A model generated the notes under the pieces. That model was not told the origin of the DNA. It saw nothing but the letters and a program-made list of their open reading frames with translations, and searched no databases. A program made the translations under genes and the position numbers. Below, one piece after another: positions 2,847 through 8,625 of a stretch of DNA of 8,625 bases (position 1 is its first letter; each line of letters begins with the position of its first letter). The stretch comes from a virus (lineage: Duplodnaviria > Heunggongvirae > Uroviricota > Caudoviricetes): positions 1 through 8,625 of the IMG/VR virus record IMGVR_UViG_2778261676_000003; one strand, given 5' to 3'.

Positions 2847-2934
2847 CGTAACCTACTGGATAAATACTCAATAGTACCATTTCTGTATGCAATCACATCA
2901 TGGTTGCATCATATCATTCGTCTGGAGCAATGAA
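2847..2934. promoter_or_regulatory. Divergent intergenic region between mnt and the tailspike gene; contains an inverted repeat ATGCAA-N11-TTGCAT (2887-2909) as a candidate operator
   Basis: 88-bp AT-rich spacer between divergently oriented start codons, with 6-bp inverted-repeat arms. Promoter hexamers are not confidently assignable by eye. Confidence 0.35.
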
Positions 2935-5091
2935 ATGTCAGATATCACCGCAAATGTTGTGGTAAGCATGCCTTCGCAACTCTTCACTATGGCTCGTTCT
3001 TTTAAAGCCGTAGCCAATGGCAAAATTTATATCGGTAAAATTGACACTGACCCGGTAAATCCTGAAAACCAGATTCAGGTTTATGTGGAGAACGAAGACG
3101 GCTCTCACGTTCCTGTTTCGCAACCAATCATCATTAACGCTGCTGGTTACCCGGTATATAACGGACAGATTGCCAAGTTCGTAACTGTGCAAGGCCATTC
3201 TATGGCTGTTTATGATGCATACGGTGTGCAGCAGTTCTATTTTCCTAATGTGCTGAAGTATGACCCGGATCAGTTTTCTGCAGAATGGCTTGCCAAGATG
3301 TCTGCGCCTGATTCTTATGCATTATTTGGTACATTCTCATCAATAGCAGATCTACGAGCATTTACTGCATACTCATCAGTTAAGGAAAATGGAAGAGTCT
3401 ATGTTGATTCTTATCACCTTGGAACTGGTTATGGCGGAGGATATTTCCGCTGGAATTCAACCAGCACTGATACTGATGACGGAGGCTATACCATTAACCC
3501 AACTGGCAATACTGGAACAGGACGCTGGAAACGTGAATTCGTATCTGCATATTCAGCTCGCACAGTTTCGCCTTTAGAGTTCGGTGCTAAGATGAATGAC
3601 AGCACCTTCGATAGTGCCCCAGCGATCAATGCCGCCATTTCATACCTCAATCCTTACTTTGATGCCTCATATGACTCACATCAAGGCGGGGATGTAACCA
3701 TGCCTGCCGGGATGTTTTACATCAATGACACAATATACGGTTCTCCAAATGTAAGATTGATCGGTACTGGGGGAACGACCGGATTTAGATATTCACGTGC
3801 TGGGTGCTGCATCATCATATCCATGTCAACAATGGATGCAAACAAGGTACAATATGACACTGCTCCTTATAAAATCGACGGTACTGGTAGATATACTGAC
3901 ACCTCAACAGTGGATAATGGGCTGACAATAAGCCACGGCTATTACGGACAGTATTTAGAAAACTTGGTTTTTTTGGGAAATCCAGATCAAAAAGCCAACA
4001 TTCGTATCTGGCGAGTGCCAACGTCAAAGTTAATTGGTGTGGGAACATATGGCTGTCTAACCAACTTCTGGATTAGCGGTTCTTGGGGTACGGCAGTTGA
4101 AAATTGCTTTGCTCAAGGAGCAAAATACGCAACATTTTTGACTCCTCACACCACAGCACTAAACATTGTAGGTGGGTACTTCACTGGAAACACATCGCAA
4201 ACATGGGCAATGGGTTCTGCTCAGTGGTTCCACAGGACTGCCTCTGATTCAAATCGTCCAAATATTGCTTATGTAACAACATTCCTTTATGCGCATGATT
4301 CAGTTGATATCAATATGCATGGAGTTACTTGGGAGGGTTACTATAGGGATTTTGCTTTATTCTACTGCGGTAATGTTAACGTTTTTGGTGGCTATAACGA
4401 AAACTCTGTAATCCCTAGCTCCGAGTATGGTCACACAGTCTGGGTGCACTGTGTAGCCTCTAGGATTAATGCTTATGGAGTATTTCTAAATCATGGGTAT
4501 AAGGATTTCGCCGTTCAGTCAGGAAATTTAATTGACCCATCTACCGGGGCGTTAATCCCTTCTGAAATATCTAACATAAATCTTTATGACCCAAGAGTGG
4601 ACTCGAAGTTTTTACAGATAAACAAAGATCTTGGATACGGCGAATATAGTATATTCATTAGCTGCAAGCATCCTATAACATCAGATCTTGCTGTCACACT
4701 TGCCTCATTAAGAAACTACTCGGCCCAATTTGATGGCCTGCTTGATCAATACACTATGCGGGTTCCCTCAATAACTCCAAATGGAACAACAAGCTTTAGC
4801 TTCCAAATCAGTAATATATCTAGTAATGGTGAGTATAACGTGCGCTTTTTAGCCAGAAACTCTGGCGGCACTTTACATCAGGATATTAGATTTAAAATGC
4901 TAATTGGAAGCGTGGTGTCAGTGACAGGGGTGGAAGAGCGTTCGAAAGTAGGTACTGCAAGCTTGGGCTCACCTTCGGTTAGCTTTGCTTCTGGCACGGT
5001 AACGATAACCTTTAATGGGAATTCAGGACTATATTCTTTATACCGTGTGCAATGCTTGCCTGTTAACAATCAAGTTATTTACAGTTTCTGA
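2935..5091 (+). CDS. Phage tailspike protein: P22-type N-terminal head-binding domain fused to a divergent beta-helix-like receptor-binding/depolymerase domain (718 aa)
   Basis: N-terminus [59 protein letters not shown]...[11 protein letters not shown] closely parallels the P22 gp9 head-binding domain ([43 protein letters not shown]...). GGAG ribosome-binding site 7 nt upstream of the ATG at 2935; the track's upstream start at 2887 adds 16 residues not seen in homologs. Downstream [23 protein letters not shown] resembles the entry motif of pectate-lyase-like beta-helix depolymerases. Stop TGA at 5089-5091. Confidence 0.9.
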
Positions 5092-5131: not shown

Positions 5132-7024
5132 TCACAAAAGAGGGTTTTTATGATTTTTCAAGTAAATCTTAGCCAATTCTCTTGCGCCATAAACATTTAG
5201 ATGTGCATGATCCATGTAAATAAACCTTCCATTTAAATAAACCTTGCAGCCTGAATCCGTGCAAAGGATATCATTTGGGTCTATATAAACTGGTTCTTTG
5301 TAGGAATTCATGATTTCATCTAATGAAATGTTAACATTTACTTTTTTAGCAAGTTCACTGTGGTCATCATTTCCAGATGCAATGTCAGATTTAAACTTGT
5401 TGAATTCCTTATAATCCATACCATTTGGTCTAAGTATTACAATTAGTTTAGCACCATGTGATGATAGGTATTCAAGAGTGGATAAGATGTCGTAACCATC
5501 TGCCTTGAAGTAACTGTCATCATTACCCCAACTAGCCCCTACAATCACGTTTTTATAACCCCTAGCCAAATCAATCCTTTTTTTGTTATAGGATAGCTTT
5601 TCCTCGCTACGGTATTTTGAAACCTTTGTGCCCTCTCTATATGGATTTATATTCATAATTGGTGGGAGCGAGCTTGAAACAGTAACAGCGACTGATTTTC
5701 CTGCATCCTTAGCCAAATAATCAATGAACTCTATGTATGACCCTGCTATCGAATCACCGATCATTATGGTCTCTGGCTTTTTTGTTACATCTCCTATGAT
5801 GCATAAACCATCTTTAGTTAGTGAATAGCTATCATAGCACTGAGAGTATTTGACCTCAGACCTGTTCTCATTTGCAAAATCGTTATTGTTAAATCTATCT
5901 GGGAATCCTTTCTCTGAGGAAGCCCAGAGGAAAATAAGTGAGAAAATTACAAGAGGAAGAATTAATAGAAGCAAGAGCGAAGGCAAGAATCCCATCTTAA
6001 ACTTGCGCACCTTAGTTTCAAAAGCATAAAAGTTGAATATAGAGAGAGCGATTGTTAGTATCAATACCACAAATTTAACAAAAATAGTGAACTCAACACC
6101 CCTATAATTAAGTAGGGCAATTATAGGCCAATGCCACAAATACATTGAATAAGAGATTTTGCCAATGAATATAACTGGTTTTAAACTTAAAACTCTGTTA
6201 ACAATTGGTGTAAAGGATTGATTGGCTCCAGCGATTATTATTAATGCCGCACCCACGCAAGGTATCAAAGCATTATAGCCAGGGAACAAGCTTTCTTTCT
6301 CTATTGAGAAAGAGCTAAATGCAATTAATGTTATACCTAAAATAGAGAAGGCGTTTGATACTTTTGTGGATTCAAATTTGTAATTACTTAGTAATATTGA
6401 AATAACGCCACCAATCATCAACTCAAAAGCCCTGAATGGGAGCATGTAGTATGCAAGCGATGTATATATAAGTGCGCCGTATTGCGAAACAGCAAACAAA
6501 GCAATTATTATCAAAACAAAGATCTGAAGCTCATACTTTCTAAATTTCAATATCACAAATGAAATTATCAAAGGTGCAATTAGATAGTACTGTTCCTCGA
6601 CGGATAAAGACCACGTGTGAAGAAGAGGGATCTGATCGGCGTTCCCTGAGAAATAGCTTGTAGTGTTGAAGTAAAAAAGGAAATTACTGATAGAAAGAAG
6701 AGTGAATATTGCGCTTTTGATCATGTATATAAACTCATCAGGCATCAATATGAAAATTGATGCGACTAATGTTGTAAATAACACGACCAATAAAGATGGC
6801 AAAATTCTCTTGATTCTTCTGTTGTAAAACCCTGAGTATGTGAAACTTCCGTTAGAAATTTCCTTTCTTATTATGGAGGTTATTAGATACCCAGAGATTA
6901 CAAAGAAAATATCTACCCCGATAAATCCGCCCGTAATGAACTGGCTACCAACATGATAGACTATTACCAATAGAACGGCTACTGCACGCAAGCCGTCAAT
7001 GTCTGGTCTATATCTAATCTCCAT
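5132..7024 (-). CDS. Integral-membrane O-acetyltransferase, acyltransferase-3 family with a C-terminal SGNH domain (OafA/Oac-like; likely O-antigen acetylation / serotype conversion), 630 aa
   Basis: N-terminal motif RPDIDGLRAVAVLLVIVYH and multiple hydrophobic segments typical of the acyltransferase-3 fold. C-terminal GDS (IGDSIA) and DHAH blocks typical of SGNH esterase-like domains. ATG at 7022-7024 with a GGGA ribosome-binding site. The gene looks AT-rich by eye. Confidence 0.9.
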   Translation of the reverse strand: MEIRYRPDIDGLRAVAVLLVIVYHVGSQFITGGFIGVDIFFVISGYLITSIIRKEISNGSFTYSGFYNRRIKRILPSLLVVLFTTLVASIFILMPDEFIYMIKSAIFTLLSISNFLFYFNTTSYFSGNADQIPLLHTWSLSVEEQYYLIAPLIISFVILKFRKYELQIFVLIIIALFAVSQYGALIYTSLAYYMLPFRAFELMIGGVISILLSNYKFESTKVSNAFSILGITLIAFSSFSIEKESLFPGYNALIPCVGAALIIIAGANQSFTPIVNRVLSLKPVIFIGKISYSMYLWHWPIIALLNYRGVEFTIFVKFVVLILTIALSIFNFYAFETKVRKFKMGFLPSLLLLLILPLVIFSLIFLWASSEKGFPDRFNNNDFANENRSEVKYSQCYDSYSLTKDGLCIIGDVTKKPETIMIGDSIAGSYIEFIDYLAKDAGKSVAVTVSSSLPPIMNINPYREGTKVSKYRSEEKLSYNKKRIDLARGYKNVIVGASWGNDDSYFKADGYDILSTLEYLSSHGAKLIVILRPNGMDYKEFNKFKSDIASGNDDHSELAKKVNVNISLDEIMNSYKEPVYIDPNDILCTDSGCKVYLNGRFIYMDHAHLNVYGARELAKIYLKNHKNPLL

Positions 7025-7223
7025 AAGGAATCCCTTTTGCTTACCCGTTTAAAATTAATATTTCAGACGCAAAGAAGTATCTTCTTCACATGATGTTGAT
7101 TGCAAACAGTGATCAAGCCATTTCATTACGCAATTCGTCGCTCTTATGCAGTTACAGTCATCATTTTCTACCTACAAAACTAGCGAAGTTGCCAAGTGCC
7201 TGACCTGTGTGAAACGCATATAT

Positions 7224-7251
7224 GCAAACAGCAAACAGCAAACAGCAAACA
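7224..7251. repeat. Tandem heptanucleotide repeat (GCAAACA)x4
   Basis: Four perfect head-to-tail copies read directly (7224-7230, 7231-7237, 7238-7244, 7245-7251), followed by a degenerate CAGCACAG. It lies in the 443-bp intergenic region about 200 bp upstream of the acetyltransferase start and about 215 bp downstream of the integrase stop. Confidence 0.8.
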
Positions 7252-7467
7252 CAGCACAGTGTAATAATGTGTTAACTATGCCAATCGAGGTGTACTTTGC
7301 AAATAGCTTTAACATTTCTTCTATCAGCTAATAATCAAAGGCATGAAGTCTATCATCCAAATCTTAAACGATCGATACTTGCTGTGGTTGATAAGACAAA
7401 ACTGAGACAAACAAAGCTTTGCGCTGGATTGCAAGGCTTTGTGCTCTTCGATAGTGGTTAAGGTGGA

Positions 7468-8625
7468 TCACTCCACCTTTTCATCAATCCAGTCCGCCCA
7501 CCATTGCATCATTTCTCTGCGTTTATCGAGATACTGAGCATGGTTGTAAATCCCACGCACAGAACCGCCGTTGGCATGTGCCAGTTGCACTTCAATAGCA
7601 TCAGCAGGCCATTCGTGCTCGTTCATAATCGTGCTGAATTCATGCCTGAATCCGTGACCGCTTTCCAGACCCTCATAGCCGATTTGTTTGATCACAAGTA
7701 GCACCGCGTTCTCGCAGATTGGCTTTTTCTTATCGTTGCGCCCGGCAAAAACAAACTCTGATACTGGTTTAGTGATGGAGCTTAGCGTAGTGAGAAGTTC
7801 AACCACCTGGTCCGACATCGGGACCACATGAATTTTGCGTCCCTTCATCACACTGGCGTCGATGGTGATAATCCTGTTTTCAAAATCGACGTTCTTCCAT
7901 TGCATGGAACGAAGCTCTTTTGTTCTTAGGGCTGTGTAGCGTAAAACCTTGGTCGCAATGAGCGATACGATGCTTCCTGAAAATGTTGCCAGTGCTTTGT
8001 TAAATGCCGGGATCTGGTCTGCAGGAAGAAACGGGAAGTTTTTCTTGCGGTATCCCTTCATGGCGTCAGCAAGGTCAGGTGCCGGGTTATATTTAGCCCT
8101 ACCAGTGACAATGGCGTAACGGAAAACCTCGCCGCATCTTCTGCGGGCTTTGTTGGCTCGCTCCATTGCACCGCGATCTTCAAATCTGCGGATTACTTCC
8201 AGCAGTTGCATCGGCTCAATATCCTGAATCTCAAGACCGCCGATGATAGGTAAAATGTCGTCATCAAACATTTTTGCAAGTTCATTTGCATAGCCTACTG
8301 ACCAGACTTGCTTCTTGTGCTCGTACCATTCCTTGTAAATCGCACTAAAGGAATTGTTGTTAGACGAAGCCTTTTTCGCCTTTACCGGATCGATGCCGAC
8401 CGAGATGTCTTTCCTCGCAGTCCATGCTTTATCCCTTGCCTCCTGCAAAGTCATAAGCGGATATTTTCCGACGGTCAGTATTTTTTCCTTACCGTCAATC
8501 TTGTAGCGAAGCTGCCATACCTTTTTCCCGGATACAGGAACATAAAGGTACAGGCCATTACCATCGAGAAGGCGGTATGGTTTTTCTTTCGGCTTTGCTG
8601 CTTCAATCTGCTTAACGGTGAGCAT
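7468..8625 (-). CDS. intS: Tyrosine site-specific integrase with an N-terminal arm-binding (DUF4102-type) domain, P4/CP4-57/IntS family (385 aa)
   Basis: N-terminus MLTVKQIEAAKPKEKPYRLLDGNGLYLYVPVSGKKVWQLRYKIDGKEK is the characteristic arm-binding domain of P4-type integrases. C-terminal catalytic-domain residues include ...HGFRHEFST... and ...LAHANGGSVRGIYNH.... The sequence matches my recollection of E. coli K-12 IntS, so the symbol should be confirmed by BLAST. The start codon is the last three bases of the window. Confidence 0.92.
   Translation of the reverse strand: MLTVKQIEAAKPKEKPYRLLDGNGLYLYVPVSGKKVWQLRYKIDGKEKILTVGKYPLMTLQEARDKAWTARKDISVGIDPVKAKKASSNNNSFSAIYKEWYEHKKQVWSVGYANELAKMFDDDILPIIGGLEIQDIEPMQLLEVIRRFEDRGAMERANKARRRCGEVFRYAIVTGRAKYNPAPDLADAMKGYRKKNFPFLPADQIPAFNKALATFSGSIVSLIATKVLRYTALRTKELRSMQWKNVDFENRIITIDASVMKGRKIHVVPMSDQVVELLTTLSSITKPVSEFVFAGRNDKKKPICENAVLLVIKQIGYEGLESGHGFRHEFSTIMNEHEWPADAIEVQLAHANGGSVRGIYNHAQYLDKRREMMQWWADWIDEKVE

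Follow-up and report, generated by a model that had tools for sequence, protein, structure and literature searches.

A copy-number-polymorphic heptanucleotide tract in a gtrA remnant upstream of an acyltransferase gene in P22-like prophages of Escherichia coli

Upstream of an acyltransferase gene carried by P22-like prophages of E. coli lies a tract of TGTTTGC heptamers, the copy number of which differs between otherwise identical sequences. The tract is located inside the truncated 5′ end of a gtrA gene (gtrA′). Arguing from anatomy only, we consider it rather probable that the tract is a young hypermutable microsatellite, born by slippage in this decaying fragment of the leader, and that it is neutral or nearly so.

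Results

The tract and its neighbouring genes

The window (the whole 8,625-nt stretch of DNA that we analysed) comes from a temperate phage or prophage of E. coli of the P22-like group (Lederbergvirus) and covers its end from tailspike to integrase; patches of it are about 96% identical to IME10, Sf6, HK620 and their relatives. A P22-type head-binding tailspike is encoded at 2887-5091. The slot between tailspike and integrase, in which the tract is found, is also used by phase-variable genes for surface modification, P22 gtr and CUS-3 neuO among them. The integrase, gtrA′ and the acyltransferase are co-directional, all on the minus strand:

7468-8625, minus strand: IntS-type tyrosine integrase of 385 aa, of a Sf6/HK620/CPS-53-like phage (Pfam; matches to K-12 intS and phage integrases)
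7411-7442, no strand assigned: 12-nt inverted repeat (ACAAAGCTTTGC / GCAAGGCTTTGT) between the int stop and the gtr promoter (repeat search; distant blastn)
7347-7375, minus strand: putative gtr-type promoter core (positional alignment to P22 gtr)
7172-7315, minus strand: gtrA′ remnant, an ORF of 47 codons at four copies, ATG 7315-7313, TAG 7174-7172 (DNA alignments to gtrA)
7224-7251, minus strand: heptamer tract (Tandem Repeats Finder; shuffles; three to six copies among related loci)
7025-7171, minus strand: non-gtrA spacer from the remnant ORF to the acyltransferase start (alignment; RNA fold)
5132-7024, minus strand: acyltransferase of 630 aa, AT3 membrane domain and SGNH domain (Pfam PF01757, PF19040)

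The acyltransferase, labelled 'acyltransferase family protein [Escherichia coli]' in the source records, matches two Pfam families above their cutoffs: PF01757 (Acyl_transf_3) over residues 8-329 (E=5e-32) and PF19040 (SGNH) over residues 400-622 (E=2e-29). An N-terminal AT3 domain with a C-terminal SGNH domain is the architecture of the OafA/OafB-like two-domain carbohydrate acyltransferases, and the substrate is presumed to be a surface polysaccharide. A sequence search of the PDB returned no match and hence no sequence-related solved structure, and the species-representative genomes hold only relatives of 41% identity or less, which are uninformative for the leader. Inside the 3′ end of the acyltransferase ORF, on the opposite strand, there is a 17-nt tandem duplication (TCCATGTAAATAAACCT, 2.1 copies, 94% matches) at 5211-5245, which is constant across near-identical loci. 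Two inverted repeats capable of forming hairpins lie 3′ of int, at 7411-7442 and at 7460-7479, the latter spanning the int stop codon. The former is conserved in many lambdoid phages (Stx phages, 434, the HK-series); under the match, HK620 has an annotated terminator, and epsilon34 a terminator and putative CII-binding sites.

The tract reads (GCAAACA)x4 on the plus strand at 7224-7251, that is, (TGTTTGC)x4 on the minus (coding) strand. This repeat had been reported in the initial annotation and is borne out: Tandem Repeats Finder returns the same coordinates for the window, with a period of 7, 4.0 copies, 100% matches and the consensus GCAAACA, and a direct reading of the letters (atat-(GCAAACA)x4-cagcacag) agrees. 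When a three-unit heptamer pattern is searched with up to two mismatches allowed, the tract is the sole match in the window, and the same pattern has no match in 200 dinucleotide-preserving shuffles of it. The tract is not explained by chance. From its end to the acyltransferase ATG at 7024 there are 199 nt, in agreement with the roughly 200 bp given earlier. In the searchable literature library, no paper contains the dimer of the heptamer in either orientation.

Copy number varies on identical backgrounds

Megablast did not find the acyltransferase gene in the complete RefSeq genomes of E. coli or in the phage collection, and the isolate data therefore come from draft assemblies. The sample comprises the window and 24 further E. 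coli loci, these being contigs that encode either the exact acyltransferase of the window or one of three near-identical variants. Of these 25 prophage copies of the module, 23 have a countable tract:

3 copies: 5 sequences
4 copies: 15 sequences, the window included
5 copies: 2 sequences
6 copies: 1 sequence
uncountable: 2 Logan contigs (L117 and L118), which start inside the tract

All differences in tract length are exact multiples of 7, and the flanks are identical. Nine sequences without a single substitution over 2092 nt from the tract to the gene end (the 199-nt downstream flank plus the 1893-nt acyltransferase gene) carry three, four or five copies; the two sequences of a single-substitution haplotype, 1734T, carry five and three; and haplotype B is represented by four and six. 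Copy-number differences within these haplotype groups, in which no substitutions are seen, require at least five independent length changes. Lengths also vary within the four contexts in which the module is found (argW/IntS, dacC, bioA/ybhB and a lambda-type integrase). With varied copy numbers on identical 2.1-kb backgrounds and in four contexts, slippage must be recurrent, and at this 28-nt tract it outpaces point mutation over 2 kb. Comparing copy number among isolates had been proposed in the initial annotation, and the outcome is positive: three to six copies occur on an identical or near-identical flank and gene.

The two-copy state, which we take below as ancestral, is absent among the 25 sequences (23 countable), which might be a hint that three or more copies are selected for. 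Searching the metagenome, viral and species-representative genome collections for the exact flanks with one to nine copies between them returned nothing, the pattern itself working on the loci analysed here. The three-copy heptamer by itself does occur in 11 environmental viral contigs; as the flanks there are unrelated, we regard these as irrelevant.

We judge it very improbable that the repeat or its variation is an artefact, be it a chance low-complexity run or a short-read assembly error. The two Logan contigs that begin inside the tract do speak for such trouble, as k-mer assemblers can struggle here. However, the chance expectation from the shuffles is zero, reads far exceed the tracts (21-42 nt) in length, and the differences come only in whole heptamers between perfectly conserved flanks. 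The alleles moreover recur across pipelines (three, four, five and six copies in NCBI GCA drafts; three, four and five in Logan contigs), and variation seen in both kinds of assembly argues against an assembly artefact. As for the two contigs themselves, both start exactly inside the tract (positions 1-30 of each, GC plus four units) and have the same SNP haplotype as L114, the locus with six copies. Such starts fit tracts too long for a 31-mer assembler, and longer alleles may thus be under-counted in k-mer assemblies.

The gtrA′-acyltransferase module as a whole is found with zero to two SNPs in 2.1 kb at no fewer than four chromosomal sites (L004-L013 and L113-L125; for example dacC in L008 at 812-1978, bioA/ybhB in L011 at 430-2254, and the lambda-type int in L122 at 1-679). 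The prophages that carry it differ in integrase and in tailspike (718, 719, 731 and 734 aa), and a near-identical module in differing prophages implies recent spread by recombination among P22-like prophages. In one acyltransferase haplotype (P0122, loci L113-L121) substitutions are dense from about nt 1086 of the gene onward (window position ~5940 and below), with the 5′ half almost identical; the pattern suggests a mosaic, recombinant SGNH-domain half.

The tract lies in a truncated gtrA

The tract had been described as lying in intergenic DNA. We find that the interval 7025-7467 holds a 5′ fragment of gtrA on the minus strand (ATG at 7315) and that the tract is inside this fragment. DNA alignments to the gtrA genes of K-12 CPS-53, HF4s, P22, BUCT554 and E. 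coli CP8-3/XJ34 identify gtrA′ as the first ~46 codons of a gtrA, the homology ending at about 7172-7175. Collinearity with the gtr regulatory region and with the beginning of gtrA extends, on the minus strand, from the int stop to about 7172. Matches to the intS-gtrA region, in K-12 CPS-53 as in hundreds of E. coli genomes, seemed to break off in mid-tract, at 7239, because there is a 14-nt insertion at this point, that is, two heptamers; it is the sole length difference between the window and the gtrA alignments.

With four copies, gtrA′ translates as MLKLFAKYTSIGIVNTLLHCAVFAVCCLLFAYMRFTQVRHLATSLVL followed by a stop (7315-7172). With two copies it ends in AVFAVCIYAFHTGQALGNFASFVGRK and a stop, parallel to VVFGVCIYVAHTNQALANFAGFVV of K-12 GtrA; removal of two units thus restores a GtrA-like frame (AVFAVCIYAFHTGQALGNFASFV). 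Against the Pfam profile GtrA_DPMS_TM, this two-copy reconstruction scores E=5e-4 and 20.7 bits, below the 26.1-bit cutoff, and at the DNA level gtrA′ is 87.5% identical to gtrA of Enterobacter phage BUCT554 over 79 nt. Judged by its DNA, gtrA′ is clearly gtrA-derived, as a gene fragment and not as a full member of the GtrA family (PF04138). In every frame and at any copy number it has 40-60 codons, versus 120 in intact GtrA, a membrane protein of four helices. The other ~75 gtrA codons are absent from the window, as are all of gtrB and gtrC, and the acyltransferase gene begins 147 nt past the end of gtrA′.

The closest intact gtrA genes are those of Enterobacter phage BUCT554, E. coli CP8-3 and E. 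coli XJ34, and their heptamer pairs read TGTTCGC-TATTTGC, TTTTCGC-TATTTTC and TGTTTGC-CATTTGC. All six gtrA genes that we compared (these three and those of K-12, P22 and E. ludwigii) have two imperfect heptamers and no expansion. In intact gtrA the pair encodes V-F-A-I/V-C of the first transmembrane helix. In the lineage of the window both units are identical (TGTTTGC TGTTTGC) and have been multiplied. To judge from these alignments, the tract is an expanded gtrA proto-repeat, and only copies of the gene that are already truncated contain it. None of seven predicted variants of the gtrA′ peptide has an exact counterpart in the protein collection, as is to be expected given that gene callers skip this ORF.

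The following sequence of events would account for this anatomy. An AT3-SGNH acyltransferase gene would have replaced most of the gtrABC operon in a P22-like E. coli prophage, leaving the gtr promoter and the first ~46 gtrA codons as a leader of ~316 nt. As the alignments and the alleles show, the two imperfect heptamers became identical in the lineage of the window. Since the truncated gtrA frame no longer needed upkeep, slipped-strand replication expanded the tract, to three, four, five and six copies, and keeps altering it. Transcribed as part of the leader, the tract would by its length alter only the frame and the tail of a vestigial gtrA′ peptide, and for this reason the variation in copy number is most likely neutral, or nearly so, for expression.

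The probable promoter is upstream of the tract

Positional alignment to P22 gtr places the promoter core at 7347-7375, with a -35-like TCGATC (7375-7370), a 17-nt spacer and a -10-like TAGACT (7352-7347; TACACT in P22). Nearly all related loci have this core unchanged, even those in which the sequence farther upstream differs according to the integration context. The P22 gtr start site has been mapped 25 bp upstream of the gtrA ATG (PMC2909390). For the window we infer transcription to start at about 7340, with a leader of ~316 nt that would hold the gtrA′ ORF and the tract. Such a start, lying upstream of the tract, would put the heptamers at about +90 to +117 of the transcript.

The initial annotation had assigned the tract to the region of the acyltransferase promoter. 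The homology with P22 argues otherwise, since the aligned promoter is upstream of the tract and the tract is within the vestigial gtrA frame. The candidate promoter suggested between repeat and gene (TTGCAA at 7100-7105 and GATACT at 7076-7081) does not hold up well either: it matches four of six positions in each hexamer with an 18-nt spacer, is below the threshold of our scan and has its -10 in a predicted hairpin. The scan of 6900-7600 returned no sigma-70-like promoter and no intrinsic terminator; a weak internal promoter may yet be present.

The spacer between gtrA′ and the acyltransferase gene (7025-7171) is A/U-rich and has a Shine-Dalgarno region (AAAGGGA) upstream of the acyltransferase ATG; conservation with relatives in Yersinia and Enterobacter extends over its final ~60 nt. 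At ~7070-7092, some 50-70 nt upstream of the ATG, an A/U-rich hairpin of 11 bp (GAAGAAGAUACUUCUUU) is predicted, which overlaps the earlier-proposed -10 hexamer. It is not terminator-like, as no U-run follows it. An Rfam search with E up to 1 gave no match.

The gtrABC operons of P22 and Salmonella are phase-variable through Dam and OxyR, and the window resembles P22 in keeping the gtr regulatory block, the start of gtrA, the aligned -10, the leader and one GATC site. In P22, GATC sites are found at -110, -97, -46 and -33 from the start site (PMC2909390), which we compute as -135, -122, -71 and -58 from the gtrA ATG. We compared the regulatory regions of the window (7347-7467), P22 (21005-21140 of locus L101) and K-12 (1578-1730 of locus L001). 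Unlike P22, in which the four GATC sites form two pairs lying within OxyR half-sites, the window retains only the one at -58, and the same is true of K-12 CPS-53 and E. ludwigii. This lone GATC of the promoter core is at 7370-7373; the other GATC of the window, at -154 from the ATG, is unrelated and lies in the int-end hairpin. The Dam/OxyR switch requires two GATC pairs within three OxyR half-sites upstream of gtrA, and this arrangement is not found in the window. With three of the four sites missing, the methylation switch is probably not intact, and E. coli-type gtr promoters (those of the window, CPS-53 and E. ludwigii) are probably not methylation-switched. No slipped-strand signature was found upstream of gtrA's coding sequence in P22 (PMC2909390), and the heptamer tract is peculiar to the present E. 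coli module.

Tract length and expression of the acyltransferase

Polymorphic repeats beside surface-modification genes are a classic signature of contingency loci. The tract could accordingly be a functional contingency element, with copy number modulating expression of the acyltransferase, in a graded or an on/off manner, from the 5′ leader. We regard this as possible but unlikely. Three routes can be envisaged: the gtrA′ upstream ORF, through its frame, its length or the position of its stop, could affect ribosome coverage, mRNA stability or access of Rho; the tract could take part in long-range RNA pairing with the translation start; or it could determine how far apart, and in what helical phase, the gtr promoter region and a downstream promoter lie.

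Several observations favor a function of this sort. Polymorphic copy number on identical backgrounds is the population signature of contingency loci, and all three frame classes are seen (three and six copies; four; five). The gene, which encodes an acyltransferase of surface-polysaccharide type, occupies the slot for lysogenic conversion in a P22-like prophage, and it is in this very slot that neuO of CUS-3 is switched by a heptamer tract, of 3-53 copies (PMC13001214). The apparent loss of the P22 Dam/OxyR switch, with one of four GATC sites kept, would leave room for another source of variation.

We simulated the frames for zero to nine copies and folded the leader for zero to eight. The three frame classes of gtrA′ terminate before the acyltransferase ATG, at distances of 155, 147 and 136 nt, and the acyltransferase frame has three stops between gtrA′ and this ATG. 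A translational fusion of gtrA′ to the acyltransferase, which we considered, is ruled out by stops in all frames, and with every frame ending 136-155 nt upstream translational coupling is implausible. The tract, 199 nt from the ATG, is outside the regulated frame; its length shifts only the truncated gtrA′ frame, which is not the translational arrangement of neuO. Predicted accessibility of the ribosome-binding site does shift, from ~0.76 for two copies or fewer to lower values for three or more, as a contingency element acting through RNA structure would have it; the shift depends on long-range pairs of low reliability, and the alleles of three, four and five copies share the same predicted accessibility (0.54-0.56). 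The A/U-rich spacer is, in our own reading of the sequence, presumably not an obvious loading site for Rho. The tract is probably neither between nor beside promoter hexamers, and at three to six units it is short, so that switching would be slow compared with classical loci. To go by these predictions, we see no mechanism that would make expression differ between the observed alleles.

Relatives without the repeat also speak against a need for it. In E. ludwigii, an acyltransferase 70% identical to that of the window has the gtr promoter and gtrA directly upstream; in Yersinia kristensenii, one 81% identical has no gtrA upstream; neither has the repeat. The E. ludwigii gene is located 56 nt downstream of a 110-codon gtrA, with no gtrB (L099, 2613-2945 and 3001-4893; L100, 1-351 and 407-2299), and similarity of that gtrA to GtrA is lost after about residue 80, the C-terminal part being degenerate. 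The pattern appears to represent another stage, independent of the first, in the decay of gtrA beside the acyltransferase. A layout with a degenerate gtrA and without the repeat makes gtrA decay look general and the repeat unnecessary for expression. Finally, origin in a truncated pseudogene explains the tract without invoking a function, and a slippage-born, nearly neutral microsatellite is the reading that we prefer.

The heptamers are unlikely to be an array of binding sites

As an alternative, the initial annotation had suggested that the heptamers are binding sites for a recombinase or a regulator: integrase arm-type sites, or an iterated operator, with copy number setting occupancy. Short direct repeats near an integrase gene do resemble arm-site arrays, and further near-copies of the unit are present at 7100-7109 (TTGCAAACAG) and 7297-7306 (TTGCAAATAG). 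We nonetheless give this explanation only a slim chance. In related loci, as in K-12, the tRNA-Arg gene argW is immediately upstream of the int start. The att junction is thus next to argW, on the 5′ flank of int; it lies outside the window, at a distance of more than 1.5 kb from the tract, and it is because the junction is on the other side of int that the integrase-site idea fails. Furthermore, an identical tract is found in prophages beside dacC and bioA/ybhB and together with a lambda-type integrase of 356 aa, while IntS phages with an intact gtrA (K-12 CPS-53, HF4s and XJ34) have no array. A period of 7 bp would also set successive sites on different faces of the helix, and no regulator that binds TGTTTGC sites spaced by 7 bp is known to us.

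Discussion

The closest analogue of the tract is the neuO heptamer of phage CUS-3. In this E. coli K1 prophage, (AAGACTC)n in the 5′ coding region switches translation of a capsule O-acetyltransferase; copy number ranges from 3 to 53 among genomes, and only multiples of three give the full-length protein (PMC13001214). The two systems share the phage genus (Lederbergvirus), the argW/IntS integrase, the tailspike-int slot, a 7-nt unit with a copy number polymorphic among isolates, and the position beside an acyl- or acetyltransferase of surface-polysaccharide type. They differ in that our tract is in a vestigial gtrA frame 199 nt upstream, from which no frame reaches the acyltransferase; in addition, its unit is unrelated in sequence, the enzyme is of the AT3-SGNH type and the tract is far shorter (3-6 copies).

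Two further kinds of system invite comparison. In Neisseria meningitidis, nadA has a TAAA tract upstream, and tracts of this kind, upstream of or inside the promoter, alter the binding of regulators or the spacing of hexamers. Ours is likewise a short tandem repeat outside the regulated ORF with a copy number that varies between strains, but it is downstream of the putative promoter, in what would be transcribed, formerly coding DNA. The Salmonella 'family II' GtrC/OafB systems are gtr operons with an acyltransferase as the third gene. Like these operons and Sf6 oac, the window has a surface-polysaccharide acyltransferase in the P22-like conversion slot with gtr sequences before the gene, and the E. 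ludwigii relative, with the order promoter, gtrA, acyltransferase, is akin to the family II operons. Unlike the latter, the window has no gtrB, and its gtrA is cut to ~46 codons; unlike Sf6 Oac, a single-domain AT3 protein, its enzyme combines AT3 with SGNH. We know of no repeat tract in family II gtr operons or in Sf6 oac.

Given the proven heptamer switch of an O-acetyltransferase in the same slot of CUS-3, convergent use of a heptamer is not far-fetched. A more specific and correspondingly more speculative version of the contingency reading, which we think improbable, would make the tract the second, independently evolved heptanucleotide contingency tract of E. coli P22-like prophages besides neuO. 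It would exert its effect from within the 5′ leader, by way of the frame or length of the gtrA′ ORF or of RNA structure, would vary an O-antigen-type AT3-SGNH acyltransferase, and would replace the lost Dam/OxyR switch.

To our knowledge, repeat-driven contingency loci are rare in E. coli, with neuO as the main example. This rarity, and the location in the same slot of the same phage family as neuO, make a second polymorphic heptamer tract worth recording. For annotation the case is a caution, as seemingly intergenic repeats near promoters may sit in unannotated gene remnants. If the tract is neutral, as our preferred reading of a slippage-born microsatellite has it, it would document a clear, datable birth of a microsatellite, from imperfect in-frame heptamers of gtrA to a perfect repeat expanding after truncation, and it would be useful as a high-resolution marker of the mobile acyltransferase module among E. 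coli prophages.
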